A DNA stretch of 64,000 bases from a virus (Duplodnaviria > Heunggongvirae > Uroviricota > Caudoviricetes), in the IMG/VR virus record IMGVR_UViG_3300010162_000009. One strand, 5' to 3'. The notes beneath the pieces are model-generated. The model worked only from the letters and a program-made list of their open reading frames with translations, made no database searches and was not told where the DNA came from. The number at the start of each line of letters is the position of its first letter. Within the stretch, counting starts at the first letter, position 1. Positions 21,275 through 60,421 of the stretch are shown piece after piece. A program made the position numbers and the translations under genes.

Positions 21275-23239
21275 ATGAGTAATAAAATTATAGGTATAGA
21301 CCTTGGGACCACATCGTCATGTGTGTCGGTAATGGAAGGTGGTAAAGCAGTTGTAATACCAAACAGCGAAGGTAGAAATACCACACCTTCAGTGGTAGCA
21401 TTTTTAAAGGATGATGTATTAGTAGGCGATGCTGCTAAACGTCAAATGGTAACAAATGCAGAAAACACAGTGTATTCAATAAAACGTTTCATGGGGGAAA
21501 CTTACAGTTCATCTATAAAAGAACATGATAAAGTTTCGTACAAAATTGTAAAAGGTAATAACGATACTGTTCGTGTTAAGATTGGTGAACGCGAATTTAG
21601 TCCTCAAGAGATATCTGCAAGAGTCTTACAAAAAATGAAGAAGACGGCTGAAGATTATTTAGGACATGAAGTTACAAAATCTATCATAACTGTTCCAGCT
21701 TATTTCAACGATTCCCAACGTCAAGCAACCAAGGATGCTGCTGAAATAGCAGGATTAGAAGTTCTCAGAATCATCAACGAACCAACAAGTTGTGCTTTAT
21801 GTTTTGGATTGGATAAAGCTAAAGAAGATATGAAAATAGCAGTTTATGATCTGGGTGGGGGTACATTTGATATTTCAGTTCTATCATTGGGTTCCGGTAT
21901 TTTTGAGGTTTTATCTACCTCTGGGGATACGTTTCTTGGAGGTGACGACGTTGACCGTGTTATTATAAACTTCCTTGCTGATGAATTTCAGAAAGAATTT
22001 TCTTTGGATTTGAGAAAAGATCCTATGGCATTACAGCGGTTAAGAGAAGCAGCAGAAAAAGCAAAAATCGAATTATCCTCTTCTATTCAAACTGAAATCA
22101 ATCTACCATACATAATGCCGGTTGATGGTATCCCTAAACACCTTGTACAAACTATCACCCGCGCTAAATTTGAACAAATGATTTCAGATATTGTTCAACG
22201 CACCATTGAACCATGTAAAACCGCATTAAAAAGCGCAAATTTAACCATAAATGATATTGATGAAGTAATTCTTGTTGGTGGTAGTACACGTATTCCTGCT
22301 GTTCAAGATGCTGTTGAAAAATTCTTTGGTAAAAAACCGAACAAGAGTGTAAATCCGGATGAAGCAGTATCTTTGGGAAGTGCTATACAAGGGGCAATCC
22401 TCTCTGGTGAGGAGACTGATCTTCTTCTTTTAGACGTTACCCCATTATCACTTGGTATTGAAACTCTCGGTAGTGTATTCACGAAGTTGATTGAAGCAAA
22501 CACAACAATTCCTGTAGAAAAATCACAAATATTCAGTACGGCAGTTGATAATCAACCGGCAGTAACAATCAGGGTTGGACAAGGTGAGCGACCATCCTTT
22601 AATGATAATAAACTGTTAGGTATATTTGATTTGGATGGTATTCCACCAGCAAGGAGAGGTGTACCTCAAATTGAAGTAACATTCAGCATCGATGTGAATG
22701 GTATTATGTCCATTAAAGCAAAGGATAAAGGAACGAACAAGGAGCAGAGTATTACCATTCAATCTTCATCTGGTTTATCTTCCGAAGAGATTGAAAGAAT
22801 GAAGCGTGAGGCTGAAGAAAATGCTGACGCTGATAAGAAGAAAATGGAAAAGGTACATGCGTTGAATAAAGCAGATTCATTAATTTTCTCTACTGAAAAA
22901 CAATTTGAAGAGTTAGGTGATAAAGTTACCGAAGAAGATAAGTCAAAAATTCAACCAATAGTAGATGAACTGAAAGAAGTTCTAAAAAATCAGGAACATG
23001 AAAAGGTTGAAGATTTGTCGAAAAAGTTAGAGGAAGCGTGGATACCAATCAGCGCAAAATTATATGCGCAAAGTAATCCTGACGGTAATTCAAATCCATT
23101 TGCTAATATGGGTGGTAATCCTTTTGCTGGTGGAGATAATCCATTTAGTGGATTTGATTTCAGCAAAGGTGCGCCAAACCCTACCGATGATACCTCTGCA
23201 CCGGAATGGGCGGAAGAAGTAGATCCTGATAAAAAGTAG
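21275..23239 (+). CDS. dnaK: Molecular chaperone DnaK (Hsp70).
   Basis: Full-length Hsp70: [28 protein letters not shown], and substrate-binding and lid regions. Confidence 0.95.
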
Positions 23240-25622: not shown

Positions 25623-28600
25623 TTACGATATTTTCTCTATAAGTTTTTCCAACCTTTCAATTCTATCAACCAAATTATCAACCATACTTAATGCGACAAC
25701 AGATAGTTTTGTATAATCAACTGCCAAAAACCCTTCCTCATTGGTTGTAACCAGTTCCGGACATATTTTTTGAACATCTTGTGCTATTACACCAATATGT
25801 TGTGTTTTTGTTTCATCATCGTTTAACTGATAGTAGATTTTCTTTAAATGTTTAAATGTTTCAATAGTATAATTTGAATCAACTTCTCCTGTTACTGTTT
25901 TTAAACGTGTATCCGATTCTTGGAAAAATCCACCTCCGGCATATATTCGCTGACTACCATCTCTAAATACTACCGAACTTGCAACACTACTTCCTGTTAC
26001 TGGACAAGCGGTTGGTACACCATTTGTAGCAAAGTAAATAGGTTGTATACCACTACCAAGTGCTCCTTGCCCTGTACCGTTACCTAAAACAAGTTGAGTA
26101 GCAGTAGCAGCAGTACCACTTGTTCCAAGTCTTGTTGCTGAACCGGCATTACCTGTTACTGTTGTTGGTGCCGCTGGCATAGTTAATGTACGTGCCGTTG
26201 CGGTAACTTGCCCGTTTGTTGCTTGACTTACTTGTGGTACAATAAATGTACCCCCATAAGTCAAGGTTGCGTTTGCAGCAGGTCCTGTTGCAGCAACCGC
26301 CGTAAATGTTGGGGCAGCTGGTGCCGCCGGCAGAGTCATTGCACGTGCCGTTGCAGTAAGTTGTCCGTTTGTAGCCTGACTCACTTGTAATACATTAAAG
26401 GATGCACCAAATGTCAAAGTTCTAGCAGCAGTCTCACCGGTATTTGATACGGCAGTTACTGATATTGTTGGAGCAGCTGGCATAGTCATTACTCTTGGAG
26501 TAATTGTCATTTGACCACCTGCTGCTTGTGATGCTTGCAGGACAGTAAATGTTCCTCCATAAGTTAAAGTTTTTGCAGCAGCTTCTCCACCACCTGTTAC
26601 CGCCGTAATAGCGGTACATGCTGTTGGAACACCGGCATTTAAATACATAGGTTGTGTCAACCCTCCAACCGTTCTTGTTGATGTTCTTAAATTACCATTC
26701 CCATCCGATGAGTCTACAACAATCATATTATACGCCGTCGATGAAACACCAGGAGTTATTTGTGTTGGAACACCAGCATTTAAATATATAGGTCTTTGTA
26801 CTGCGCCAACCGTACCCGGAGCATTTCCGTTACCTAATACAAGTTGTGTTGCAGTTGCTGCGGTTCCGGCTGTACCTAACCTTGTTGCTGAACCGGCATT
26901 ACCGGTTATTGTTGTTGGTGCGGCCGGCATGGTCATTGTATAACTTGTAGCTGCAACTTGTCCACCTGCAGCCTGACTTACACCAGGAACACTAAATGTA
27001 CCACCGAAAGTTAAAGTTGCGGCGGCAGAAGGACCTGCTGCTGCAACCGCATTAATTACAGGGAACGTTGCCAAAGAACCATCACCTCTTAAATACTGAG
27101 TGGCTGTTCCGAGTCCGCTGTGAGCGGTTATTGCATGACTTGCTGGGGCAAAAGTTGTGGGTTTATCCGTTATTTGTGCCCAAAGATGATCATGTGTAGT
27201 AGGTGTCATAGACGTTGGAAACGTTGCTAAAGAACCATCCCCCCTTAAATACTGCGCACTAGTTCCTAATCCGGTATGACTGTTCAAAGCATGACTTGCC
27301 GGAGCAAAAGTTGTTGGAACACCAGTAAGGTTACTATATGCCCAACTTGTTGGTCTGTCTGTAATGTTTGCCCAAGTATGATCGTGTGTTAGAGGCGCAT
27401 ATGCTGAAAATTGTAACTGTGTTCCTGACTTTGTAACCGCATTTCCACCAACTGTTGCCGATTGAATCGCTGTATCAACCTTCCCACCTTGCGTATTAAT
27501 CGCTGTCCACACGTCACTTAAATCCACGTTTGCACTAAACTCTTTCCACTCGAAGTCGAAACGATAAAATGCGTTGTCGCTGTTTCTGTTATGCCATAAA
27601 TCACCCAGAGTTTCTTCTACATTTGGTTTATTTACACCTTCAATACCATAAGTTGTATTTGCTGTTCCACTCCACGTTCCGTTATTAATAATATAACATG
27701 ACCAGAATGTGTCAGCAACTAAATTTGATATATTTTCTTGACTATTCACATACCATAATGTTCCGTTTCCGAACATTGTGTTTTGTGGTGTATTATCTGG
27801 CGGTGTCGCCGATATAATTCCGCGAAACCCGAAAAATCCACTTCCCATCGTGGATAACATTGTTTCCACCCACGATTTTCCGGTGGTTTCAGTCCATTTA
27901 CCATTTACTTGTGTTTGTAAATTATTAAGATCTGTCTGAGATGCGGCGTTATCCGCTTTTGTTCCCTGTGCAGCAGTAGCAAATGCGGCAGCATTTTGTA
28001 ATGCAGTATCTGCTTTTGCGCCTTGAGCTGCTGTAGCAAATTCGGCAGCATTTTGTAACGCGGTGTCTGCTTTAGCACCTTGTGCTGCTGTTGCGAAATC
28101 AGAAGGATTTAATTCATCAGGATACTCCGGAAATTCTAATACACCACCAGTTTTTGTAACAGCAAGACCACCAACAGTTGCAGACTGTACTGCACTATCT
28201 GCTTTTGCACCTTGAGCGGTGGTAGCGAATTCGGCAGCATTTTGTAACGCGGTGTCTGCTTTAGCACCTTGTGCTGAAGTTGCAAACCCTTCGCTTCTGT
28301 CTTTAAATTCGTTAAAACTTGTTTGAGTCGGAGCACTATCTGCTTTAGCACCTTGTGCTGATGTGGCGAACCCTTCGCTTCTATCTTTAAATTCGTCGAA
28401 ACTTGTTTTAGTTGCAAACGCTGATGCATCTTGTAACGCCGTATCTGCTTTTGCACCTTGAGCAGCAGTTGCAAACGCTGAAGCGTCTTGTAACGCTGTA
28501 TCTGCTTTTGCACCTTGAGCAGCAGTTGCAAACGCTGAAGCGTCTTGTAACGCTGTATCTGCTTTTGCGCCTTGCGCTGCGGTAGCGAATTGTGATGGAT

Positions 28601-28742
28601 CGATTTCCGGAATATCTATATTATCTGGAATGGTATCAACCATTTCTACAAGAACGTCTTGTAGAACGTCACCTTTAATCGCTTTACTGCTATTCTTGTA
28701 TATCTTACCTTTGATATACGTCTTTAGTTGTGTTAGTGTCAT
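25623..28742 (-). CDS. Tail fibre or tail spike protein, 1039 aa. N-terminal module shared with 43235-50005; about ten 18-aa FATAAQGAKADTALQDAS repeats; C-terminal peptidase-S74 intramolecular chaperone autoproteolysis domain.
   Basis: C-terminus ...SDTRLKTVTGEV...IGVIAQDVQKICPELV...LAVDYTKLSV matches the endosialidase/L-shaped-fibre chaperone domain signature. Repeats and shared module read directly from the translation. Confidence 0.75.
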   Translation of the reverse strand: MTLTQLKTYIKGKIYKNSSKAIKGDVLQDVLVEMVDTIPDNIDIPEIDPSQFATAAQGAKADTALQDASAFATAAQGAKADTALQDASAFATAAQGAKADTALQDASAFATKTSFDEFKDRSEGFATSAQGAKADSAPTQTSFNEFKDRSEGFATSAQGAKADTALQNAAEFATTAQGAKADSAVQSATVGGLAVTKTGGVLEFPEYPDELNPSDFATAAQGAKADTALQNAAEFATAAQGAKADTALQNAAAFATAAQGTKADNAASQTDLNNLQTQVNGKWTETTGKSWVETMLSTMGSGFFGFRGIISATPPDNTPQNTMFGNGTLWYVNSQENISNLVADTFWSCYIINNGTWSGTANTTYGIEGVNKPNVEETLGDLWHNRNSDNAFYRFDFEWKEFSANVDLSDVWTAINTQGGKVDTAIQSATVGGNAVTKSGTQLQFSAYAPLTHDHTWANITDRPTSWAYSNLTGVPTTFAPASHALNSHTGLGTSAQYLRGDGSLATFPTSMTPTTHDHLWAQITDKPTTFAPASHAITAHSGLGTATQYLRGDGSLATFPVINAVAAAGPSAAATLTFGGTFSVPGVSQAAGGQVAATSYTMTMPAAPTTITGNAGSATRLGTAGTAATATQLVLGNGNAPGTVGAVQRPIYLNAGVPTQITPGVSSTAYNMIVVDSSDGNGNLRTSTRTVGGLTQPMYLNAGVPTACTAITAVTGGGEAAAKTLTYGGTFTVLQASQAAGGQMTITPRVMTMPAAPTISVTAVSNTGETAARTLTFGASFNVLQVSQATNGQLTATARAMTLPAAPAAPTFTAVAATGPAANATLTYGGTFIVPQVSQATNGQVTATARTLTMPAAPTTVTGNAGSATRLGTSGTAATATQLVLGNGTGQGALGSGIQPIYFATNGVPTACPVTGSSVASSVVFRDGSQRIYAGGGFFQESDTRLKTVTGEVDSNYTIETFKHLKKIYYQLNDDETKTQHIGVIAQDVQKICPELVTTNEEGFLAVDYTKLSVVALSMVDNLVDRIERLEKLIEKIS
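28040..28600 (-). repeat. Intragenic tandem 54-bp (18-aa) repeats, including an exact ~60-bp duplication at 28441-28560.
   Basis: Repeated ctgcttttgcaccttgagcagcagttgcaaacgctgaagcgtcttgtaacgctgtat units. Confidence 0.7.
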
Positions 28743-43234: not shown

Positions 43235-46200
43235 CTATTGAGAATCATTTCCTAAATAAATAGCACCATCCTTATCTACCGTAAATCCTGGTCCTAACTT
43301 AATCTTAATGGAATCACCTAAAGCTAACACTGGAAGAGAGATGGTGAAAATATCAAGGGTGGTACCGCTACTTCGTGGCATATATAACTTTCCATTGTAA
43401 ATTTGACTTGTGTTTCGAGTTATATTTGCAGGAATTGTTGTCGTGCGAGTAGTTTCTGTTACCAAATCAAAAATCTCAAGGGTGGCACCACCACCACTTT
43501 GTGGCATATATAACTTTCCGTTGAAAATTTGACACGTAAAACGCTGCATATGTGTAGGAAGTGTTACCGTGCGAGTGGTTTCTTCTTCCAAATCAAAAAT
43601 ATCAAGTGCGCTGCCACTATGTTGTGGCATATATAACTTTCCGTTGAAAATCTGACTTATCCATCGCTGCCTACTTGCAGGAAGCGTTATCGCACGACCA
43701 GTTTCCGTCACCAAATCAAAAATCTCAATGGTGGCACCACCACCACCTTGTAGCATATATAACTTTCCGTTGAAAATCTGACTTGTGTATCGCCACATAT
43801 TTGTAGGAAGTGTTACCGTGCGAGTAGTCTCTGTTACCAAATCAAAAATCTCAAGGGTGGTACCACCAGTTCCTGGTATATATAACTTTTCGTTGAAAAT
43901 TTGACTTGTGTCTCGTTCCATATCTGTAGGAAGCGTTACCGTGCGAGTTGTTTCCCTAACCAAATCAAAAATCTCAAGGGTGGTACCACCAGTTCCTGGT
44001 ATATATAACTTTTCGTTGAAAATTTGACTTGTTTTTCTACCCATATTGGGAACTGTTACCGTGCGAGTGGTTTCAGTTACCAAATCAAAAATATCAAGGG
44101 TAGTATTCCAATCACTTGGTATATATAACTTTCCGTTGAAAATTTGACTTGTTTGTCTCTGCATATTTGTAGGAAGTGTTACCGTGCGAGTAGTTTCTTC
44201 TCCATTGGTAATTTTAATATTTGGATAAGCAGGAAACCTTATTTCATTATTAACTTTTTCAACCTCTTGTCCACCAAGCATAATTTTCGGAATATCAGGA
44301 TATACCGGAAGGATAAACTCATTACCAACCTTCTCTACCGGAATACCTAAATCAAAAATCTCAAGAGCGGTACCACCATCTTGCGGCATATATAACTTTC
44401 CGTTGAAAAATTGACATGTAGCCTTCCATACAGATGTAGAAAGTGTTGCTGTGTATTCTTCTTCTGTTACCAAATCAAAAATCTCAAGGATATTACCACC
44501 ATCTGGTATATATAACTTTCCGTCGAAAATATGACTTGTTTGTCGTCCCATGTTTGTAGGAAGTTCTACCATGCGAGTAGTCTCTGACACCAAATCAAAA
44601 ATCTCAAGGGCGGTGCCATTATGTTGTGGTAGATATAACTTTCCGTTGAAAATCTGACTTGTTTGTCTCTGCATATTTGTAGGAAGTGTTACCGTGCGAG
44701 TGGTTTCCGCTATCAAATCAAAAATCTCAAGGGTATTACTACCATCTCGTGGCATATATAACTTTCCGTTGAAAATTTGACTTGTTCTTCGCCACATATT
44801 TGTAGGAAGTGTTACCGTGCGAGTAGTCTCTGTTACCAAATCAAAAATCTCAAGGGTGGTACCACTATATTGTGGTAGATATAACTTTCCGTTGAAAATC
44901 TGACTTGTTTGTCTCTGCATATTTGTAGGAAGTGTTACCGTGCGAGTAGTTTCAGTTACCAAATCAAAAATTTCGAGAGTGGTACCATTATCTCGTGGCA
45001 TATATAACTTTCTGTTGAAAATTTGGTTTGTTATTCGCCCCATACTTGTAGGAAGTGTAACCGTGCGAGTGGTTTCTGTAACCAAATCAAAAATCTCAAG
45101 GGTGGTATTCCAATTCCCAGACATATATAAATTTCCGTTGAAAATTTGACTAGTACGTCTCTGCATATTTGTAGGAAGTGTTACCGGGCGACCAGTTTCT
45201 GTACCAATTTTTACAGATGTATAAGGTGGAAATACTAATTTATCTCCTATCTTTTTTACATTATTTCCTACAATGTTAAAAATTTCAAGGTTTTTCCCAA
45301 AATTTTCTGGTATATATATTTTCTCATCGAAAATTTGAATTATACTTCGTTGCATGTTTCTAGAAAATCTTACCACGTGAGTAGTTTCTGTTACCAAATC
45401 AAAGATCTCGAGGATGGAATTCCCTGCCATATATAACTTTCCCTTGTAGATTTGACTTCCAGGACGATTCATGTTTGTAGGAAGTGTTACCGTGCGAGTA
45501 GTTTCTGTTACCAAATCAAAGATCTCGAGGGTTGTACCTTGCTCCTGTGGTATATATAACTTATCATCATAAATTTGACTTGTGTATCGCAGCATATCTG
45601 TAGGTAGTTCTACTGTTCGCATTTCTTCAGTGGTTAAATCAAATATTTCCATAGTTGTATAACCAGAACTTGGTATATATAATTTACCATCGTATAGTTG
45701 CCCAGTATATCTCAACACATCTGTTGGAAGGGTAATATATCGCGTTTCCTCGGTATTTAAATCAACAACTTCAAGTTTCACACCAGAACTTTCCGGTATA
45801 TATAACTTTTCGTTATATAAAAAACTTGTTAGTTTATTTGTCATCATGTCACTCAAACTAGGGAGTCCAATCATACTCACTTCTTCAGTTTTTAAATCAA
45901 ATACTTCAATCATTTGGTACATAACTGAAGGTATATATAACTTATCATTATAAATATGACTTGTAAGTCTTCCTATAGTTCCATTAAGATCTACTGTTCG
46001 CATTGTTTTAGAACTTAAATCAAATATTTCGAGAACAACACTACATAGTAAATATAATTTACCATTGTAAATTTGACTACCCAATCTCTGAAATTCAGTA
46101 GGAAGTTCTATTGTTTCTATTATTTCTATACTTTCTTCTCCAATACTAGCGAATTGTACTGCCGTGTCAATTTTCTCTAATTTTGCTTCATCTATTTCCG

Positions 46201-49200
46201 GAACTTTTGGATAAGGGGGGAAATATAACACATCACCCACTTTTTCTACTTCAATGTTAATATCATAAACCTCTAAATTTCCTTCACCTAAATTTTCTGG
46301 TATATATAATTTTCCTTCGTGAATATGAAATGAACTATCTCTATATGAATCTACTGGAAGTGTTACCACACGAGTTTTTTCAGTAGCAAAATCAAATATT
46401 TCAAGATTTGAACCATAACCACTTGGTATGTATAATTTTCCATTTAAAATGTTACATATAAAACGATCTGTTAAAATAGGAAGTTTTATTGTACGGATTT
46501 CTTCTGTGGTTAAATCAAAAATAACCATGTTTGTACCATTATTTTCTGGAACATATAACTTTCCATTATAAATTTTAAAAGTTTCATAGGTTATATTCGT
46601 AGGTAGTGTTACATATCGCACCTCCTCAGTAGTTAAATCAAAAATTTCAACGGTTTTATCATTCGATTCACCGCTCATCATATATAATTTTCCATCAAAA
46701 ATTTGAGATGTGTTTAACATATGTTTAACCATGGTAAGCGATACTGTGCGTGTTTCCTCTGTAGTTAAATCAAATATATCAAGACCATTATTATTACTTC
46801 GACGTATATATAACTTTCCGTTGAAAATTTGACTTGTCCTTCTAGAATTCCAACCATCAGGTAATGATACTGTGCGTGTAGTTTCAGTTACAAAATCAAA
46901 AATTTCAATAATATTCTGATTCAGACCTAACATATACAATTTATCATCATAAATTTGACTTGTTGCGCGTCCCATATCACTTGTAGGAAGTGATATGTTG
47001 TAAAATTCTTTGGTTTTTATATCAAATATATCCATTCTTGTACCCCAACCTTCAGGTATATACAACTTTTCGTTATAAATTTGACTTGTAAAACGGTTTA
47101 AAACAACAGGTATCTTGAATATTTCAGTATTATCTTTACCAATAAATGCGGTTATTTCCGGATAAGCAGGAAATACCAATTCCGTTCCATTTTTTTCTAT
47201 TGATGTGGTAATACTAAATATTTCAAGGGTGTTACCATTACCTTGTGGCATATATAACTTTCCGTTGAAAATATGACTTGTATGTCGCTGCATACTTGTA
47301 GGAAGCATTACCGTGCGAGTGGTCTCTGACACCAAATCAAAAATCTCAAGGGTGTTACCATTGTCTTGTGGTATATATAACTTTCCGTTGAAAATTTGAC
47401 TTGTAGAACGAGTCATAGATGATGTAGGAAGTGTTACCGTGTGGGTGGTTTCTGCCGTTAAATCAAAGATTTCGAGGGTTGTATTCCAATCTCCAGGTAT
47501 ATATAACTTTCCGTTATAAATTTGACTTGTACGTCGCTGCATACTTGTAGGAAGTATTACCGTGCGAGTGGTCTCTGACACCAAATCAAAAATCTCAAGG
47601 GTGTTACCATTCCATTGCGGCATATATAACTTTCCGTTGTAAATTTGACTTGTGATTCGCTCCATACTTGTAGGAAGTGCTACCGTGCGAGTAGTTTCCG
47701 TCAGAAAATCAAAAATCTCAAGGGTAGCACTACCACTTCCTAGTATATATAACTTTCCGTTGAAAATTTGGCTTGTTCTTCGCCACATATTTGTAGGAAG
47801 TGTTACCGTGCGAGTGGTCTCTGACACCAAATCAAAAATCTCAAGGGTAGCACTACCACTTCCTGGTATATATAACTTTCCGTTGAAAATTTGACTTATT
47901 AGTCGAGACATATTTGTAGTAGGAAGTGTTACTATACTTCTTTTACTTGTTAAATCAAATATTTCAATATTATTATATGTTGGTATATATAACTTTCCGT
48001 TATAAATCTGAGTTGCTGATCCCATTTCAATGGAATTTACCTCTATTGTTTCTATTTCTTCTTTAGAATATATAACCGCTGATTGTATAGAACTATCTGA
48101 TTTATTTCCTTGATCAGCGGTAGCAAACTGTGTTGTATCAATTTCCTCATAAGCAGGTAATTTAAATATAATATTAGTATCTGCAGTAGCAAGAGTTATA
48201 ATTTCAAGTGTATCATCCAAAGAAGGTGGTATATATAATTTTCCATTGTAAATTTGGCTAGTATATCTACCTATATCCGCCGGAAGTGTTTCAACATGTA
48301 CCTCTTCCGTTGCTAAATCAAATACTTCAAGTGTAGTATACCAATCTTGTGGTATATATAATTTTCCATTAAAAATTTGACTTGTGTATCGTTCAACATT
48401 AGAAAGAATAGGTAATACACGAGTAATTTCAGTGGCAAAATTAAAAATTTCAATGTTTACATTATTAGGACCTACCATATATAAATTTCCATTGTAAATT
48501 TGGCTAGTTGGTCTATCCATACTTGTTGGAAGCGTTACTGTACGAGTTGTTTCTGTAGTCAAATTAAAAATTTCAAGAGTGGTACCTCCGAATTCTGGCA
48601 TATATAATTCTCCATAGTAAATTTGACTAGTGCGTCTCTGCATACCTGTAGAAAGTGTTACTGTACGAGTTGTTTCTGTAGTTAAATCAAAAATCTCAAG
48701 GGTTGTGTCAACCCCACCCATCATATACAACTTCCCATCATAAATTTGACTCTCATATCTATTAGCTGGTTGTAGTGTTACTGTACGAGTTGTTTCTGTA
48801 GTTAAATCAAAAATCTCAAGGGTTGTTCCACTATGCTCCGGTAAATAAAGATTCCCATTATAAATTTGACTTGTAAAACGCATCATATTTGTTGGAAGTG
48901 TTACCGTGCGAGTAGTTTTTGTAGTTAAATCAAAAATATCAAGGGTATCACCGCTATCTTCTGGTATATATAATTTCCCATTATAAATTTGATTTGTACG
49001 ACGGGTCACGCTAGAAGGAAGTATTTCAGTATCAGTTATTAAATCTTCAAGTGAAATCCATTCACTGTTAGTTATTTTTTGAACAGGTTCATCACCAAGC
49101 ATTATTTCTATTTCAGGTACTTCAGGGTATTCAGGTAATTGTAATTCTGTACCAACTTTTGGGACAAATTCACCCCCAATACTTATTGTCTGAACAGCGG

Positions 49201-50005
49201 TATCAACCTTACCACCCTGTGTGTTAATCGCTGTCCACACGTCACTTAAATCCACGTTTGCGCTAAATTCCTTCCACTGGAAGTCAAAACGATAAAATGC
49301 GGTGTCACTATTTCTGTTATGCCATAAATCACCCAATGTTTCTGATACAGTCGGTTTGTTCACGCCTTCAATACCGTAGGTGGTGTTCGCCACAGAAGAC
49401 CATTCACCATCTTGAATTACATAACATGACCAGAATGTGTCAGCAACCAAATTTGACATGGTTTCTTGATTGTTAACATACCATAATGTTCCGTCACCGT
49501 ACATTTTATCTTCAGGGTTGTTACTCGGAGGTGTCTCCGACACCACCCCACGAAACGTAAAGAAACTGCTTCCCATTATGGACAACATTGTTTCCACCCA
49601 TGATTTTCCGGTGGTTTCTGTCCATTTTGTATTTACTTGTGATTGTAAATTGTTAAGACTTTCTTGTGTTGCGGCATTGTCTGCTTTAGCACCTTGTGCT
49701 GAAGTTGCAAACCCTTCGCTTCTGTCTTTAAATTCGTTAAAACTTGTTTGAGTCGGAGCACTATCTGCTTTAGCACCTTGAGCAGCAGTTGCAAACGCTG
49801 AAGCGTCTTGTAACGCTGTATCTGCTTTTGCACCTTGAGCAGCAGTTGCAAACTGCGATGGATCAATTTCTGGAACGTCTATATTATCTGGTATTGTGTC
49901 TACCATTTCAACAAGCACGTCTTGCAGCACGTTACCAGTAATTGCTTTGCTACTATTTTTGTATATCTTACCTTTGATATACGTTTTTAATTGATTTAGT
50001 GTCAT
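43235..50005 (-). CDS. Giant fibre or structural protein, 2256 aa. N-terminal ~290-aa module shared with 25623-28742, followed by about 45 tandem ~42-aa beta-propeller-like repeats (consensus TTRTVTLPTNMQRRTSQIFNGKLYIP...GTTLEIFDLVTE).
   Basis: Uninterrupted ORF. Repeats visible in the translation and at DNA level. Repeat pattern resembles YVTN/NHL-type propeller blades. Confidence 0.8.
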   Translation of the reverse strand: MTLNQLKTYIKGKIYKNSSKAITGNVLQDVLVEMVDTIPDNIDVPEIDPSQFATAAQGAKADTALQDASAFATAAQGAKADSAPTQTSFNEFKDRSEGFATSAQGAKADNAATQESLNNLQSQVNTKWTETTGKSWVETMLSIMGSSFFTFRGVVSETPPSNNPEDKMYGDGTLWYVNNQETMSNLVADTFWSCYVIQDGEWSSVANTTYGIEGVNKPTVSETLGDLWHNRNSDTAFYRFDFQWKEFSANVDLSDVWTAINTQGGKVDTAVQTISIGGEFVPKVGTELQLPEYPEVPEIEIMLGDEPVQKITNSEWISLEDLITDTEILPSSVTRRTNQIYNGKLYIPEDSGDTLDIFDLTTKTTRTVTLPTNMMRFTSQIYNGNLYLPEHSGTTLEIFDLTTETTRTVTLQPANRYESQIYDGKLYMMGGVDTTLEIFDLTTETTRTVTLSTGMQRRTSQIYYGELYMPEFGGTTLEIFNLTTETTRTVTLPTSMDRPTSQIYNGNLYMVGPNNVNIEIFNFATEITRVLPILSNVERYTSQIFNGKLYIPQDWYTTLEVFDLATEEVHVETLPADIGRYTSQIYNGKLYIPPSLDDTLEIITLATADTNIIFKLPAYEEIDTTQFATADQGNKSDSSIQSAVIYSKEEIETIEVNSIEMGSATQIYNGKLYIPTYNNIEIFDLTSKRSIVTLPTTNMSRLISQIFNGKLYIPGSGSATLEIFDLVSETTRTVTLPTNMWRRTSQIFNGKLYILGSGSATLEIFDFLTETTRTVALPTSMERITSQIYNGKLYMPQWNGNTLEIFDLVSETTRTVILPTSMQRRTSQIYNGKLYIPGDWNTTLEIFDLTAETTHTVTLPTSSMTRSTSQIFNGKLYIPQDNGNTLEIFDLVSETTRTVMLPTSMQRHTSHIFNGKLYMPQGNGNTLEIFSITTSIEKNGTELVFPAYPEITAFIGKDNTEIFKIPVVLNRFTSQIYNEKLYIPEGWGTRMDIFDIKTKEFYNISLPTSDMGRATSQIYDDKLYMLGLNQNIIEIFDFVTETTRTVSLPDGWNSRRTSQIFNGKLYIRRSNNNGLDIFDLTTEETRTVSLTMVKHMLNTSQIFDGKLYMMSGESNDKTVEIFDLTTEEVRYVTLPTNITYETFKIYNGKLYVPENNGTNMVIFDLTTEEIRTIKLPILTDRFICNILNGKLYIPSGYGSNLEIFDFATEKTRVVTLPVDSYRDSSFHIHEGKLYIPENLGEGNLEVYDINIEVEKVGDVLYFPPYPKVPEIDEAKLEKIDTAVQFASIGEESIEIIETIELPTEFQRLGSQIYNGKLYLLCSVVLEIFDLSSKTMRTVDLNGTIGRLTSHIYNDKLYIPSVMYQMIEVFDLKTEEVSMIGLPSLSDMMTNKLTSFLYNEKLYIPESSGVKLEVVDLNTEETRYITLPTDVLRYTGQLYDGKLYIPSSGYTTMEIFDLTTEEMRTVELPTDMLRYTSQIYDDKLYIPQEQGTTLEIFDLVTETTRTVTLPTNMNRPGSQIYKGKLYMAGNSILEIFDLVTETTHVVRFSRNMQRSIIQIFDEKIYIPENFGKNLEIFNIVGNNVKKIGDKLVFPPYTSVKIGTETGRPVTLPTNMQRRTSQIFNGNLYMSGNWNTTLEIFDLVTETTRTVTLPTSMGRITNQIFNRKLYMPRDNGTTLEIFDLVTETTRTVTLPTNMQRQTSQIFNGKLYLPQYSGTTLEIFDLVTETTRTVTLPTNMWRRTSQIFNGKLYMPRDGSNTLEIFDLIAETTRTVTLPTNMQRQTSQIFNGKLYLPQHNGTALEIFDLVSETTRMVELPTNMGRQTSHIFDGKLYIPDGGNILEIFDLVTEEEYTATLSTSVWKATCQFFNGKLYMPQDGGTALEIFDLGIPVEKVGNEFILPVYPDIPKIMLGGQEVEKVNNEIRFPAYPNIKITNGEETTRTVTLPTNMQRQTSQIFNGKLYIPSDWNTTLDIFDLVTETTRTVTVPNMGRKTSQIFNEKLYIPGTGGTTLEIFDLVRETTRTVTLPTDMERDTSQIFNEKLYIPGTGGTTLEIFDLVTETTRTVTLPTNMWRYTSQIFNGKLYMLQGGGGATIEIFDLVTETGRAITLPASRQRWISQIFNGKLYMPQHSGSALDIFDLEEETTRTVTLPTHMQRFTCQIFNGKLYMPQSGGGATLEIFDLVTETTRTTTIPANITRNTSQIYNGKLYMPRSSGTTLDIFTISLPVLALGDSIKIKLGPGFTVDKDGAIYLGNDSQ
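43300..49100 (-). repeat. Long array of ~126-129 bp intragenic tandem repeats with high DNA-level similarity.
   Basis: Recurrent accgtgcgagtagtttctgttaccaaatcaaaaatctcaagggtggtacc units across roughly 5.8 kb. Confidence 0.8.
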
Positions 50006-50020
50006 ATTTTTATGTGTTAA

Positions 50021-51832
50021 TTATTTGATTATTCCTAATACCTTATCAACTTTTTCAAAGATGATTTTCTTTTTATTGTCTACTGTTAATATATCGGCGT
50101 TTTCCATATATTGTCTTAAATTTGTAAAATCTTTATCCACCCAAGCACCTGGTGTTGAGGGGTCTGTGACCATATCCCAGCAAAGAAGTTCAAAATCATC
50201 TCCAACAATACCTATATTATTTTTTCCGGATTCTACTGAACCAACACCTCTTGAAGACACACCCATTTTAAGTCTATTGAAATAAATATTATTTGCAATA
50301 ATATCTCCGGGCGTGGAACAGATACCGTGTTTAACATATGCTGGTGATATTAATAATTCAAAATCACCTACCACAGTTTTTCCTTCCCACCAAAGTTTTA
50401 AAATATTCATGGAAATACCTTTGGTTGATATGATGGAACTCTCCGGGTGGTCTGAGTTATTAGTCCAGTGTGTCTTTCCATTACACATACAATACCATGT
50501 ATGATTTTTAACTTTAACACACATTACTTTACCCACATATTTTTCTTTTGTTATAGATAAATTTTTGTAAATGGATATGAATTTATTTAATGATTTATAA
50601 GTGAAAAACATATTACTACAATTTTCACCTTTTATTAATCTATCACCTATATATCTATCATATTTTCTATCTTCTTCTTTAAATGTTCCTGAATACCCTA
50701 TTTTTAATTGTATTTCATTTAAATCTAATACCAACCGTTTAGATGTTGAAAAAACATCATTTGAATTTACTCTTTTTCTACCATCACCTAAAACAAACCA
50801 ATCATATAATATGGTTAATAACTCTTTTGATAAGTTTTTTATTTCAAAAGGAATATATTTATCATAACATATACCTAATTTTGATAAGTATGTATGAAGT
50901 CGCGCATCGGTGATAAGAAATACGTTTTTTTCTCCTTCTTTACCACATTTAGTAAATGGTAAACCAAGTTCATTTAACATTGTTTCTATTTCATCAATTA
51001 CTTCTTTCTTTTTTTGGTGAATATAAATTCCATATCCTCTATTTTTTTCATTTCTTTTTGATGCGCTACCTTCTGAAAGATATATACCCATAAATGCCAT
51101 AAATGGTTTTATTGGTAATACAAGATCTTCATTTAATTGTTTTCTAAAATTTTCAGATATATTAAAGTGAGGTTCCTTATTCAATTTAGGTATAATAAAA
51201 AATTCTTCGTCAGTTTTTTTCATCCATTTTCCTTGTTTTAAAAAATGACAATGATTTTGATCTGGTATCATACTATCATACAAATCTTGTGCTGAAAAAT
51301 TTCCTTTATATTTATGGTATCTATCCCATATTGGATAATTGTGATTAGGTGTAACAAGATCGTTGATATGCCTACCTTTTATTCTAATCATATCACCATT
51401 ATGATCAAACACAGGTTTTTCTTCAATAGGATTTATTTCTATTTCCTCTGTTTCAGTGTTGAGTGTTAAAATATTTTCACCAACTTCAACATCTTCAAGT
51501 GTTTTCCAACCGGTTTCGGTTAATATCATTGTATCAGGTGTATAACATTCTCCATATGCTCTTCTTTCTCTGATTTTTACGTTATATTTTTCTACTTCTC
51601 GTTCCAATATTCTTCTAGGATATATTCTACCGTTGGCATTTGGGGTATCGCATTTTTGAAAAACAGCATGTAATACATAAGGAAATGGAATATACCATTC
51701 TTCACTTACCTTACCTTCAAATAACATCTTATCTTCTTTTGGGAGAACATATCCATCATTTTCAAATAGAAATCCGTATCCGTATTTTCCACGTTTTACC
51801 TCTTGTAAATTCTGAACATCTTTTACTTTCAT
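50021..51832 (-). CDS. Prohead core protease (T4 gp21-like) interrupted by an intein. The spliced host protein would be ~239 aa.
   Basis: Exteins: GRIYPRRILEREVEKY..RAYGE / SDHPESS...GVSSRGVGSV. These match the gp21 blocks (KRLYPKRILEKAVKDY...LGELNHP...GVSSRGLGSL) as I recall them. ATAAATAG 19 bp upstream. Confidence 0.8.
   Translation of the reverse strand: MKVKDVQNLQEVKRGKYGYGFLFENDGYVLPKEDKMLFEGKVSEEWYIPFPYVLHAVFQKCDTPNANGRIYPRRILEREVEKYNVKIRERRAYGECYTPDTMILTETGWKTLEDVEVGENILTLNTETEEIEINPIEEKPVFDHNGDMIRIKGRHINDLVTPNHNYPIWDRYHKYKGNFSAQDLYDSMIPDQNHCHFLKQGKWMKKTDEEFFIIPKLNKEPHFNISENFRKQLNEDLVLPIKPFMAFMGIYLSEGSASKRNEKNRGYGIYIHQKKKEVIDEIETMLNELGLPFTKCGKEGEKNVFLITDARLHTYLSKLGICYDKYIPFEIKNLSKELLTILYDWFVLGDGRKRVNSNDVFSTSKRLVLDLNEIQLKIGYSGTFKEEDRKYDRYIGDRLIKGENCSNMFFTYKSLNKFISIYKNLSITKEKYVGKVMCVKVKNHTWYCMCNGKTHWTNNSDHPESSIISTKGISMNILKLWWEGKTVVGDFELLISPAYVKHGICSTPGDIIANNIYFNRLKMGVSSRGVGSVESGKNNIGIVGDDFELLCWDMVTDPSTPGAWVDKDFTNLRQYMENADILTVDNKKKIIFEKVDKVLGIIK
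50456..51547 (-). mobile_element. Intein (~364 aa) with a LAGLIDADG homing-endonuclease domain, inserted between GE and SDHP of the protease.
   Basis: Block A CYTPDTMILTETG; block B TPNHNY; LAGLIDADG-like FMGIYLSEGSAS and WFVLGDGRKR; C-terminal ...THWTNN followed by a Ser +1 residue. Confidence 0.75.
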
Positions 51833-52073: not shown

Positions 52074-52643
52074 ATGAATGTAAGCAATGAAGTCACATTG
52101 TTATGTGAAGGTGTATCAGTTACCCCATATTCGGGTAGTAAGTTTGAGGTGGTTTTAACCAACCCTAAATCTCAAAGTCCAAATGTTTATATCAAGGAAG
52201 ATGAAAGATTTAAAAATCCATTATATCATATTGATATATATGATGTGATAGAATATTATGGTGAAGAAAAGTTATTAGACGAGATAGACACAGATTCTCG
52301 CACAGCAGTTAACCATTACGGTATCTACAATGTTTTAGAAAACATAGAAGTAAACGATGTAATCGAACATTATGGTGAGAGTGCTATTCTTGAAAAATTA
52401 GGAATAGATGATGTTATTACGAATAAAAATAAAATAACAGATGGGAGATTATTGTTTGATGATAAAACATTTTATACAAGACTTCTATCTCATTTAACTA
52501 CGTGTAAAGCACATTGTCCAATAGGTGAGGATGAACTTCAATATCTTAGGCGAGTCGCTGAAAAACTTCAAAGTTTTCAAATAGAAACGGTTGATAGAGG
52601 TAGCGAAGAATATCGCTATTTGAAGAATTTGGATTTGGTATAA
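52074..52643 (+). CDS. Hypothetical protein with internal DVIE(Y/H)YGE repeats, 189 aa.
   Basis: ORF track. Confidence 0.5.
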   Translation: MNVSNEVTLLCEGVSVTPYSGSKFEVVLTNPKSQSPNVYIKEDERFKNPLYHIDIYDVIEYYGEEKLLDEIDTDSRTAVNHYGIYNVLENIEVNDVIEHYGESAILEKLGIDDVITNKNKITDGRLLFDDKTFYTRLLSHLTTCKAHCPIGEDELQYLRRVAEKLQSFQIETVDRGSEEYRYLKNLDLV

Positions 52644-54715: not shown

Positions 54716-55648
54716 ATGGAACAACAATATTTGGATATGATGCGACGTATCCTCGATATGGGTGATTACAAAAGCGCAGCAAGGGAGAATTTACCGGGAA
54801 CAAAAGAGATATTTGTTCAAATGATTAGACACGATTTACAGAAAGGATTTCCGTTGCTTACAACGAGAGAAATGCCCATTAGAGGAACATTTGAAGAACT
54901 GAAATGGTTTTTGAAAGGGAGTACAGATGTTAGAGAACTTATTCGTAATAAGTGCAACTTTTGGAGTGAAGATGTGTATAAATTCAATAAGAAAGGATAT
55001 GACAAATTTCCCGATTATGATCTTTGGTTGGAAGTAATAAAAAACACTGAAACAGAATCTTCACATACGGATGCTGGTGAATTATACGGAAAACTGTGGC
55101 GAAACTTCAATGGTGATACTGACCAAATATGTAATTTAGTCAATAGGATATTGAAAGAACCAAATTCTCGTTATCAAATAGTATCGGCATGGAATCCTTC
55201 GGTAGTATCTCGTGGTTTAAGCGCATTACCTTCTTGTCATATGATATGGCAAACAAATGTAAGAGAAGGAAAATATTTGGATTTGGTTATGATGCAAAGA
55301 TCATGTGATATTCCTATCGGTGTACCGGTTAATATTGCAAGTTACGCTTTATTAATCCACATATTATGCTTAATATTACCATACTATCCTGGTGAACTTA
55401 TATGGATAGGTAACAGCGCACATATCTACGAAAATCAGTTTGAAACATGTGAAGAACAGTTAAGTAGAACACCAAGAGAATTACCACAACTTAATATAAA
55501 ACTACGTCCATACATTCAAAATACTTGGGTATCAGAAGAACTAACAGATTTTTTTGATTCATTAAGGTTTGAAGATATTGAACTTATCAATTACAATCCT
55601 CACCCAAAACTCAAATACACTTTTTCAAGTGGGTTAATCAAAAAATAA
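54716..55648 (+). CDS. thyA: Thymidylate synthase (ThyA-type).
   Basis: Active-site LPSCH; QRSCDIPIGVPVNIASYALL with the Asp and Asn typical of dUMP-specific enzymes; YGKLWR. Confidence 0.85.
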   Translation: MEQQYLDMMRRILDMGDYKSAARENLPGTKEIFVQMIRHDLQKGFPLLTTREMPIRGTFEELKWFLKGSTDVRELIRNKCNFWSEDVYKFNKKGYDKFPDYDLWLEVIKNTETESSHTDAGELYGKLWRNFNGDTDQICNLVNRILKEPNSRYQIVSAWNPSVVSRGLSALPSCHMIWQTNVREGKYLDLVMMQRSCDIPIGVPVNIASYALLIHILCLILPYYPGELIWIGNSAHIYENQFETCEEQLSRTPRELPQLNIKLRPYIQNTWVSEELTDFFDSLRFEDIELINYNPHPKLKYTFSSGLIKK

Positions 55649-58084: not shown

Positions 58085-60421
58085 CTACATTTTTCTAATT
58101 GGTATTCTGAACACTAAATGAGTTCCGTATCCAAGTTCAGATTGAACAGTAATAGAACCACCCAACATTTCAACAATTTGTTTTGTGATATAAAGTCCCA
58201 TTCCTGTTCCACCATATCTAATTCTATCCTGTGCATTGATTTGATTAAACCTATCAAAGATAATCTTCAATTTATCTTCAGGGATACCAATACCAGTGTC
58301 TTCAACGGTGAACACTAACATATCAGATTCTATTTCATATCCAAATTTAACATATCCGCTTTCAGTAAATTTCACTGCATTTCCGATAACATTATTCAGA
58401 ATTTGACGTACCCTTGTAACATCTGAATCAATGATACATGGATAGATTGAATTGGAAGTATCAAACACGACTTCTAATCTCTTATCCTTGGTTTTGATAA
58501 AACTATTAAATGATAGTTCCATTTCCTGTAAAATGATATTAATATCAAATTCTGTATGATTTATTGAAAGACTATTGGATTCTATTTTAGCAACGTCTAC
58601 AATATCATTAATCAATTGTAAAAGTTGTTGTGTGCTGCTCCTGACAATCCTTGAATATTCCTTACGCGTTTCCGGATCAATATGGTTTGAATCAATGAAG
58701 TCAAGGAAACCAAGAATACCGTTCATAGGTGTACGTATCTCATGCGACATGTTAGTGAGGAATGAAGATTTCAATTGATTTGCTTCCTCAGCTTTCATTC
58801 TTGCTTTTATCAAATGATTTGTTTGTTCAGTAACCCTGTCTTCCAAACTATCCTTCAACTTGATAAGTTCATCATTCAAATTAAGTAATTTCTTGTTTGT
58901 GTTTCTAATCATGAATAGAAGGAACAATACTATTACAACTGCAATGACAACTATATAGATAATATATTTTCGATATAATAGTTCTTGCTTTTGTGCTGCT
59001 ATTTGCGCTCTCGCTTCAAATAGACTTTGTTCAAAAGTATATTGTGCCGTTACTTGTTGAATATTAAACTTCTCTGTTTCTGTTTTTATTGAATCATTAA
59101 TGGCGTATGCTTGTCTAAGATATTTTATGGCAACAGAGTATTTAGATTTTTCAAAATTAATATCTGATAATATATGTAGAATTTCAGATTTCTTCTGTTT
59201 TAATCCCCTACCTGTTATCAAATCCAAAGCGGTAGTAAAAATTCTATCAGCATCATTCAATTCACTTTTTGAAAAGTAATAATTTCCAAGATAGTAATAC
59301 GCATCAATCAAGTGTATAACAGAATTTGATGCGCGAGCATATTCAATAGCATTTTTATAATATCTTAATTTATCTCTATCGTAGTTACTTCTCAACCCAA
59401 GATTAATATAAATTGTTGATAGTGCAGATGATTTAGGATTATTTTCTTCATATACCCTTATCAATTCATTTAATATTTTAACTACATCACTGTTATTTTT
59501 ATAATATCCTGATATCGCAAGATTGTGCATTACCCTTGCATATTGTAAATTTTCACCAAGAGTTTTGTATATTTCAGCAGACTTGTTATAATATTTATAA
59601 ACACTATCAATCTCACCAAGACCCTTATAAACACTACCGATTAAATCATATATATCTGCTTCGTTGTGTCTATCACCAATCATTTTTGAATGTTCAACCG
59701 CTTTTTCAGCACTTTCAATAGCGTGTTGTGTGTCACTTATGTACGTTAGTATTATCAATGAAATTTTATATCCCGCAATAATATTTTCAGTATTACCAAT
59801 TTCTTCCCATATCAAAATTGCTCTTCTTATCGCTTCAAAAGATTCATATAAACGACCCTGATAACGATAAACAAGTGATAAATTGTAATAATTACGAGCA
59901 AGACATTCCATCTCACCAAGTTTCATACATATATTTATTGAAGCATTAAACATTTCTATCGCCTCATTGTATTCACCTTTCAAATAGTGAATCGTACCGG
60001 TTGTTCTATACAAATCAGAAATACCCCTTTCAAAATTTATAACGTATGCAAGAGTTAATCCGCGTTGAAGAACATCCATCGCCTCAGAATATCTGCGTTC
60101 TACAATTAATTTACGTGCCGAATCACCAGACGCAATTACACGCATCTCATCCTCTGTATCCGTTGGTCTCGATATATTTTCATTAGACTTATTAATAAGA
60201 GGGAAAATAGAAATACCCCTATCCTTACTGATAATATAACCAACAGTAGAACCAACCCGGTCAGTATATTTAATGGCACTATATTCGTTTTGTTCAATTT
60301 GATTATTACTTAAACTACTATAATCTAATAGAACATCTAATTCACTATTAGATTGTGATATCGCAGGTAATAGATTGAACAATACTAATATAACTACCAA
60401 AACTATGTGTTTTTTTGTCAT
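58085..60421 (-). CDS. Sensor histidine kinase with an N-terminal signal peptide, TPR-repeat sensor region, one TM segment, HisKA and HATPase_c domains; no receiver domain.
   Basis: MSHEIRTPMNGI H-box; N/G1/G2 boxes (NAVKFT, DTGIGI, GGTGMGL); TPR-like repeats in the N-terminal 460 aa; ATAAATAG 19 bp upstream. Confidence 0.85.
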   Translation of the reverse strand: MTKKHIVLVVILVLFNLLPAISQSNSELDVLLDYSSLSNNQIEQNEYSAIKYTDRVGSTVGYIISKDRGISIFPLINKSNENISRPTDTEDEMRVIASGDSARKLIVERRYSEAMDVLQRGLTLAYVINFERGISDLYRTTGTIHYLKGEYNEAIEMFNASINICMKLGEMECLARNYYNLSLVYRYQGRLYESFEAIRRAILIWEEIGNTENIIAGYKISLIILTYISDTQHAIESAEKAVEHSKMIGDRHNEADIYDLIGSVYKGLGEIDSVYKYYNKSAEIYKTLGENLQYARVMHNLAISGYYKNNSDVVKILNELIRVYEENNPKSSALSTIYINLGLRSNYDRDKLRYYKNAIEYARASNSVIHLIDAYYYLGNYYFSKSELNDADRIFTTALDLITGRGLKQKKSEILHILSDINFEKSKYSVAIKYLRQAYAINDSIKTETEKFNIQQVTAQYTFEQSLFEARAQIAAQKQELLYRKYIIYIVVIAVVIVLFLLFMIRNTNKKLLNLNDELIKLKDSLEDRVTEQTNHLIKARMKAEEANQLKSSFLTNMSHEIRTPMNGILGFLDFIDSNHIDPETRKEYSRIVRSSTQQLLQLINDIVDVAKIESNSLSINHTEFDINIILQEMELSFNSFIKTKDKRLEVVFDTSNSIYPCIIDSDVTRVRQILNNVIGNAVKFTESGYVKFGYEIESDMLVFTVEDTGIGIPEDKLKIIFDRFNQINAQDRIRYGGTGMGLYITKQIVEMLGGSITVQSELGYGTHLVFRIPIRKM

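Follow-up and report, generated by a model that had tools for sequence, protein, structure and literature searches.

What is a 364-residue insert doing beside the predicted catalytic histidine of a capsid-maturation protease, and how could a phage make use of a protease gene that is interrupted in this way? The question is raised by a gene of the tailed-phage record IMGVR_UViG_3300010162_000009 (Caudoviricetes), of which we analysed a stretch of 64,000 nucleotides, called the window below. At 50021-51832 on the minus strand, stop codon included, the window holds a single unbroken open reading frame (ORF) for a protein of 603 amino acids, which the ORF list, Pfam and PHROGs identify as the precursor of an intein-containing prohead protease of the S77 (T4 gp21-like) family. 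Taken as a whole, the data are best explained by an S77 prohead protease precursor that carries a class-1 intein with a two-motif LAGLIDADG homing endonuclease, and we consider this explanation highly likely. No description of an intein in a gp21/S77-type prohead protease was found in the open-access literature that we searched, and an earlier report elsewhere is possible; the outcome agrees with an earlier sequence-only reading of the locus, which knew of no intein reported at this site.

The host protein

Translation of the sub-ranges divides the ORF into an N-extein of 95 residues, an intein of 364 residues and a C-extein of 144 residues. The N-extein (amino acids 1-95; 51548-51832) ends in ...RRAYGE and is defined by translation and by alignment to S77 proteins and gp21. 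The intein (amino acids 96-459; 50456-51547), supported by Pfam, conservation and the structural model, starts with CYTPDTMILTETGW and ends with NGKTHWTNN, so that it runs from Cys1 to Asn364 in its own numbering. The C-extein (amino acids 460-603; 50024-50455), defined by translation and alignment, starts with SDHPESSIIS and offers Ser460 as the +1 nucleophile. These features and all others of the gene that are given below lie on the minus strand. The sequence-only reading had drawn the same three-part division, and its boundaries are exact by translation.

When the exteins are joined, they rebuild a protease of the gp21 type that can be aligned over its whole core, as that reading had also proposed. 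The Pfam profile Peptidase_S77 (PF03420) matches the precursor in two stretches (61.6 bits) and the joined exteins in one stretch over the junction (residues 54-204 against profile positions 46-192; 79 bits with a cut-off of 27). The joined exteins are likewise recognized as the PHROG head maturation protease (phrog_207, 1.6e-36), and in a sequence search of the PDB they match T4 gp21 (5jbl) at 3e-16, with an alignment that spans the junction: GE-SDHPE of the joined exteins is aligned to GELNAP of 5jbl and GVSSRG to GVASRG. T4 gp21 was made catalytically dead by mutating H85 and S140. The two alanines of the 5jbl chain stand 55 residues apart, a spacing that fits these two positions and from which 5jbl would be the H85/S140 double mutant. 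His462 (codon 50447-50449), the +3 residue of the C-extein, is taken as the catalytic histidine because it is aligned to the 5jbl alanine at the T4 H85 position, and Ser526 in GVSSRG (codon 50255-50257) is aligned to the alanine at the S140 position. The catalytic pair is predicted to consist of His462 and Ser526, neither of which varies in relatives, and the claim that the insertion adjoins the catalytic histidine is borne out by the alignment.

In the structural model of the joined exteins the core is predicted with confidence (predicted local distance difference test, pLDDT, of 84-97 over residues ~50-210), and the top match of this model in the PDB is again 5jbl (E 5.8e-10, template modeling (TM) score 0.72, root-mean-square deviation 1.9 A), followed by herpesvirus assemblins. 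In this model the junction, for which the predicted ligated peptide is AYGESDHPESSIISTK, falls at the end of the core beta-strand 92-95, where the loop that bears the histidine starts. The joined exteins thus agree with T4 gp21 in profile (S77), in motifs (GExxHP and GVSSRG), in the aligned catalytic His and Ser and in fold. They differ in that T4 gp21 has no intein and shows Leu (GELNHP) at the position where the window has the Ser nucleophile.

Motifs and predicted fold of the intein

Conservation was followed in two sets of proteins. A search with the full precursor returns at least 693 clusters (90% identity) with E <= 0.001, and the best 120 of them, called the 120 relatives below, are 48-72% identical to the precursor; all are about 600 amino acids long, and in all but a few the precomputed Pfam annotation gives Peptidase_S77 together with LAGLIDADG_3 and/or Intein_splicing. 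The JGI record of one relative is named "intein/homing endonuclease". The second set consists of 39 distant intein-bearing S77 representatives.

Intein block A (CYTPDTMILTETGW, 51506-51547) provides Cys96, the Cys1 of the intein, as the N-terminal nucleophile; it is Cys in 120/120 relatives and in 39/39 representatives. Block B has the core TPNH (51341-51352), with Thr161 at B:7 and His164 at B:10. Blocks F and G (VMCVKVKNHTWYCMCNGKTHWTNN, 50456-50527; block numbering after Tori et al. 2010) contain Cys438 at F:4, His444, Thr457 at G:5, the penultimate Asn458 and the terminal Asn459. Invariant in the 120 relatives are Cys1, Thr161, His164, Cys438 and Asn459, and His444 is nearly so. Cys1, the Thr and His of block B and the terminal Asn are also invariant in the 39 representatives, where the +1 residue is Cys or Ser. 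Of the 120 relatives, 117 have Cys at this position and 3 have Ser, as does the window with Ser460. Block F was placed by eye against the canonical motifs and the secondary structure of the model, because sequence and profile searches yielded no residue-level alignment: the intein by itself had no usable match among PDB sequences (the best hit, at E 0.037, is an unrelated depolymerase, and inteins appear at E 0.09-0.4), and a profile search with the intein gave weak N-terminal intein matches only.

The LAGLIDADG homing endonuclease domain occupies approximately 50657-51190, its boundaries being drawn from the secondary structure of the model, the Pfam LAGLIDADG_3 match and the matches to I-DmoI and I-SceI. 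LAGLIDADG_3 (PF14528) scores 36.2 bits on the insert (cut-off 22.5, E 7e-9). Both LAGLIDADG motifs, FMGIYLSEG at 51068-51094 and WFVLGDGRK at 50774-50800, end in an intact acidic residue (Glu254 and Asp350, respectively), which is Glu in the first and Asp in the second motif of 120/120 relatives, and many other positions of the domain are invariant over the same set. Thus block B, the two LAGLIDADG-like motifs and the C-terminal splice residues that were picked out in the sequence-only reading are all present and conserved, in a combination that chance could not be expected to produce.

The AlphaFold2 model of the intein, built from a 56-sequence alignment, has a pLDDT of 94 and a predicted TM score of 0.92. 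A Foldseek search of the PDB with this model puts endonuclease-bearing inteins at the top, namely TliVMA (2.4e-17), PI-SceI, PhoVMA, PI-PkoII and PI-PfuI; the middle part is therefore an intein and not an unrelated fused domain, as had been claimed. A helix-rich alpha/beta block lies at about residues 130-295 of the model, and the central domain then matches free-standing LAGLIDADG enzymes, I-DmoI (E about 2e-6, target TM 0.62-0.67) and I-SceI. The GC content is 0.264 in the intein as against 0.32-0.34 in the exteins and 0.328 in the window. When a hidden Markov model of the intein family was run against the six-frame translation of the window, the sole match was the element at 50456-51547, and no second intein copy was found there.

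Empty sites and mobility

Intein-free alleles, which the sequence-only reading had suggested to look for among relatives, do exist. P0271 (239 aa) and P0272 (237 aa) are 73% identical to the joined exteins and colinear with them; both carry GESDHPES and read RRAYGESDHPES over the predicted junction, which in P0271 is exactly RRAYGE↓SDHPES (the arrow marks an insertion point here and below). A synthetic DNA with the empty site would read AAAATCAGAGAAAGAAGAGCATATGGAGAA↓TCAGACCACCCGGAGAGTTCCATC. The extein DNA is 77.9% identical to the P0271 gene, with a gap-free junction and 45/60 matching bases around it. The exteins of the window are nearer to these empty alleles (73%) than to those of any intein-bearing allele: in the nearest intein-bearing relative the intein is 78.5% identical and the exteins are 65.1% identical. 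Intein and extein similarities are thus in conflict, as is expected of a mobile element. With an overall identity of ~72% to the nearest relative, synonymous sites are probably saturated in this comparison.

A closer view is offered by a sister clade, in which four intein-bearing proteins have intein-free counterparts with exteins 99-100% identical. One intein-bearing contig (L009) and two intein-free ones (L011/L012) have the same gene order and flanks 98.3-98.9% identical, and they differ by a precise 1110-bp segment, GGAGAA↓TGT...AAT↓TGTAAT. After in-silico splicing the sister-clade protein P0006 is identical to the intein-free P0353. Because intein-free alleles with identical exteins exist, the exteins appear to be under selection as one contiguous protease.

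Two insertion sites around the catalytic histidine

The protein of the window is found in identical form on nine contigs from several samples, the longest being 269 kb. When a library of 50%-identity representatives is searched with the joined exteins, 3456 S77 proteins are matched, and junction parsing of the best 150 of these representatives reveals an intein in 36. Two insertion sites are in use. Site a, GE↓C...N↓(C/S)xHP, is the one used in the window. Site b, GExxHP(D/E/S)↓C...GN↓S, lies five codons downstream of site a, beyond the catalytic His, and is used in P0133, P0139, P0145, P0151, P0160, P0163 and others. It is also occupied in the uncultured 484-kb phage LR756508 (L001 2911-4635) and in the cultured Desulfovibrio/Nitratidesulfovibrio phage 7757 (OR395405, PV062637; L002 2920-4671), whose S77 protease would read ...GELNHPS-SPSVNPD... 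over the junction after splicing. Full-size inteins (309-392 aa) and mini-inteins (145-181 aa) occur at both sites. The site-b inteins of P0160 (mini, 154 aa) and P0163 (full, 382 aa) sit in exteins that are 100% identical, which looks like a natural pair differing by the loss or gain of the endonuclease domain.

Compared with the site-b inteins of P0133 and P0139, the intein of the window shows an identity of 51-55%, a value that varies with the alignment method; with some site-a inteins the identity is only 38-40%. For 9 of the 39 representatives the nearest relative of the intein stands at the opposite site; as judged by these identities, the inteins are not cleanly sorted by insertion site. 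A related intein (26% identity) is also present in Prevotella phage Lak-A1 (L003, MK250016, around 504164-505318), where it interrupts a non-protease host protein, ...IKEKFG↓C...WCGN↓SLRWY.... Since this relative occupies a different host protein, the intein family is not confined to S77 genes. Among 117 intein-free close homologues of the protease, 66 have Leu at the site-a +1 position (GELxHP, as in T4 gp21); Cys stands there in 33 and Ser in 5 (Cys or Ser, for example, in P0277, P0280, P0282 and P0284). These Cys and Ser residues may be scars of precise intein loss, or they may mark pre-adapted target sites.

Proposed mechanism and alternative explanations

The course of splicing can be proposed from the conserved residues. 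It would start with an N-S acyl shift of Cys96 at the Glu95-Cys96 bond, after which Ser460 would take over the N-extein by transesterification; Asn459 would then cyclise and free the 364-aa intein, and an O-N shift would create a normal peptide bond in a 239-aa protease with the loop ...AYGE-SDHPE.... The unspliced precursor probably has no protease activity, since the insert of 364 residues interrupts it at the end of a core beta-strand, two positions ahead of the catalytic His462; active maturation protease would be obtained only after splicing. In a co-infection, protease alleles that have no intein would be cleaved by the endonuclease, whether in the free intein or still in the precursor, and repair would copy the intein into them, that is, the intein would home. 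Nothing that we have seen calls for a new mechanism.

Several observations weigh against this explanation. Profile searches of the middle segment, which the sequence-only reading had looked to for recognition as intein and LAGLIDADG sequence, succeeded in the endonuclease part, with the LAGLIDADG_3 match given above, and not in the splicing part: the Pfam Hint and Intein_splicing models stay below threshold, Hint_2 with 18.8 bits against a cut-off of 28.4, and the N-terminal Hint match is weak. It is hence by its motifs, its relatives and its predicted fold that the insert is assigned to the inteins. Additionally, the penultimate residue (G:6) is Asn458 and not the canonical His. In the family this position is mostly Lys among the 120 relatives, with Ser, Gly and Asn found as well and His rare, and it is Gly in 22/22 site-b representatives. 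Phage class-1 inteins that have no penultimate His splice well (Kelley et al. 2016, PMC5050341). Block F:4 is Cys438, and not the Asp that standard inteins usually have there (Tori et al. 2010, PMC2807308); Cys is found at F:4 in 120/120 relatives and 35/39 representatives. The evidence for recent homing comes from the sister clade and does not extend to the exact copy of the window, because its nearest empty allele is only 73% identical. Finally, we infer splicing, endonuclease cutting and the inactivity of the precursor from conserved anatomy and established intein chemistry.

The residues named above form a mixed signature of class-1 and class-3-like features: Cys1 and TxxH are kept, F:4 is Cys, G:5 is Thr or Ser (37/39 representatives; Thr457 here) and the penultimate His is almost absent. 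Class-3 inteins are defined by the lack of an N-terminal nucleophile and by the WCT triplet (Trp B:12, Cys F:4, Thr G:5), and Ser or Cys is the first residue of three WCT inteins in InBase (Tori et al. 2010, PMC2807308). One could argue from this likeness that splicing here proceeds through Cys438 or needs it, either by a class-3-like branched intermediate or because a Cys96-Cys438 disulfide makes the activation of the protease redox-gated and not constitutive. We consider this very unlikely, since the invariance of Cys1 and of Thr7 and His10 of block B would be unexpected were Cys1 dispensable. Position B:12, moreover, is Tyr in the window and Phe, Tyr or aliphatic in the family, mostly Phe/Tyr, and the W67Y mutation made the class-3 MP-Be DnaB intein >90% inactive at 30 C (PMC2807308). 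The window intein keeps its nucleophile and has two of the three triplet residues (Cys F:4, Thr G:5); with Cys1 and the class-1 block-B residues invariant and B:12 not Trp, the family falls outside the class-3 definition. By its conservation and predicted fold the insert is a real class-1 intein, and it is probably active. A wider proposal, which we regard as quite unlikely, would set the protease inteins apart as a family of their own, which combines class-1 ends with two of the three class-3 triplet residues and does without the penultimate His. In this family the block-F Cys would act in splicing via a second branched intermediate or a Cys1 redox switch and so conditionally gate the maturation protease, and the family would have moved repeatedly between the two sites that flank the catalytic His five codons apart.

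Another possibility is that the intein splices but its endonuclease no longer homes in this lineage, so that the element is a vertically inherited passenger, kept since its loss must be exact. Such a history would be in line with the presence of the intein in all 120 closest full-length relatives (the best 120 of at least 693 clusters) and with an identity of only 73% between the window copy and the nearest empty allele. However, both LAGLIDADG acids and many positions of the endonuclease domain are invariant over these relatives, similarity between lineages is higher in the intein than in the exteins, and differences in intein presence are seen among sister-clade genomes that are 98.8% identical. 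As the mini-inteins show, an endonuclease domain that has become dispensable is lost, and that of the window is intact; hence we hold a mere passenger to be unlikely. It would be extremely improbable, in our opinion, that degeneration or domestication has deprived the intein of splicing, the 603-aa protein then working or failing as a fusion: the nucleophiles and the block-B residues are invariant across relatives and representatives, the insert splits the protease core just before the catalytic His, and intein-free alleles with identical exteins exist, so that the fusion can be argued for only from the penultimate Asn, the Cys at F:4 and the sub-threshold Pfam Hint score. A free-standing homing-endonuclease gene or a group I intron was rejected, as the ORF is continuous and in frame and its boundaries match the intein nucleophiles.

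Comparison with known systems

The prohead protease precursor with a class-1 intein, the explanation that we prefer, can be compared with several characterized elements. The nearest in architecture are the class-1 LAGLIDADG inteins of known structure, TliVMA (7qsu/7qss), PI-SceI (1vde/1lws), PI-PfuI (1dq3) and PI-PkoII (2cw7), in which a HINT domain is split by a two-motif endonuclease and which have Cys1, TxxH, the terminal Asn and the +1 nucleophile. The predicted fold of the window intein matches these structures at E 2.4e-17 to 5e-13, whereas the identity is 8-13%, their hosts are ATPases or polymerases and not a viral serine protease, and the window intein is without the penultimate His and has Cys in place of Asp at F:4.

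In their genetic behavior the protease inteins resemble those of mycobacteriophages. The latter sit in active-site motifs of essential proteins, with TerL1-a and TerL1-b one residue apart, their intein and extein trees disagree, and they have often lost the penultimate His (Kelley et al. 2016, PMC5050341). Active-site insertion, several neighboring sites per gene, tree conflict and the missing penultimate His are thus common to both groups. However, none of the 13 mycobacteriophage host-protein groups (TerL, portal, RDF, methylases, TOPRIM and others) is a prohead protease (PMC5050341), and the phages that carry the protease inteins are large, AT-rich and of different lineages. Class-3 inteins such as that of the mycobacteriophage Bethlehem DnaB (PMC2807308) share Cys F:4, Thr G:5 and the association with phages. 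The window family, in contrast, has an invariant Cys1 and Tyr/Phe at B:12 and is not a member of that class.

An intein inside a serine protease has reportedly been described before, by Wang and Liu in 1997, in the ClpP of Chlamydomonas eugametos, which is encoded in an organelle genome. The parallel is limited to the host being a serine protease, as the ClpP fold is unrelated, the setting is organellar and the insertion logic is different. A passage in Kelley et al. (PMC5050341) cites the Chlamydomonas eugametos ClpP intein among inteins with a non-canonical penultimate residue. Self-splicing mobile elements are also known from the same class of essential genes: in MarsHill/AR9-like jumbo phages the prohead scaffold/protease gene is interrupted by group I introns (bioRxiv 10.1101/2020.12.14.422802). 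There the element is removed at the RNA level, whereas the element of the window must leave at the protein level because the ORF is continuous. The Jug-phage paper describes prohead protease genes as "fragmented and/or highly divergent".

With this locus a prohead (capsid-maturation) serine protease is added to the known intein hosts. As far as we could find, it is a typical, ordinary selfish element in a host protein that has apparently not been described as an intein carrier. Because the insertion sits at the catalytic His, the phage should need protein splicing to obtain active protease and, with it, mature heads. What goes beyond routine annotation is the two-site hotspot around the catalytic His, the full homing-cycle series and the hybrid catalytic signature. 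The relatives form an unusually full natural series of full inteins, mini-inteins and exact empty sites, some of them in near-identical genomes, and the two adjacent sites with related inteins provide material on the homing cycle and on the change of insertion site. The non-canonical signature is a test case for splicing chemistry. For annotation the gain is that "hypothetical proteins" of ~600 aa in large phages can be called as intein-containing prohead proteases.

Genomic surroundings

The window has a T4-type portal, HSP70 and other genes of large phages. The portal gene (3577-5523, 648 aa) matches Portal_T4 only. In the sister clade the T4-type portal gene, located just upstream of the protease gene, is itself intein-bearing, with products of 1057-1058 aa that match Intein_splicing and Portal_T4 (L009 1-2395, L011 1-2394).

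Upstream of the protease gene the segment 51833-52073 is very AT-rich, with no obvious Shine-Dalgarno sequence before the ATG, and the next upstream gene (52074-52643) has the direction opposite to the protease gene. On the other side, 16 bases downstream of the protease gene, the minus strand holds an ORF of 2256 aa (43235-50005) with dozens of Kelch/beta-propeller-like repeats of ~47 aa (Kelch_FKB95, 1.5e-60). On L005, a contig with the identical protease, the downstream gene is called as 1001 aa and has a Peptidase_S74 match; since the window and L005 differ in this way, the region downstream of the protease may vary between contigs or be prone to misassembly.

Further genes of the window encode a full-length HSP70/DnaK homologue (21275-23239; 817 bits), a TPR-histidine kinase (58085-60421), a thymidylate synthase (54716-55648) and a protein of 1039 aa whose C-terminal part is a Peptidase_S74 chaperone domain (25623-28742). 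A HisKA/HATPase gene also stands upstream of the protease on L004, the contig with the intein-free P0271 allele, which together with the histidine kinase of the window hints at a shared gene order.

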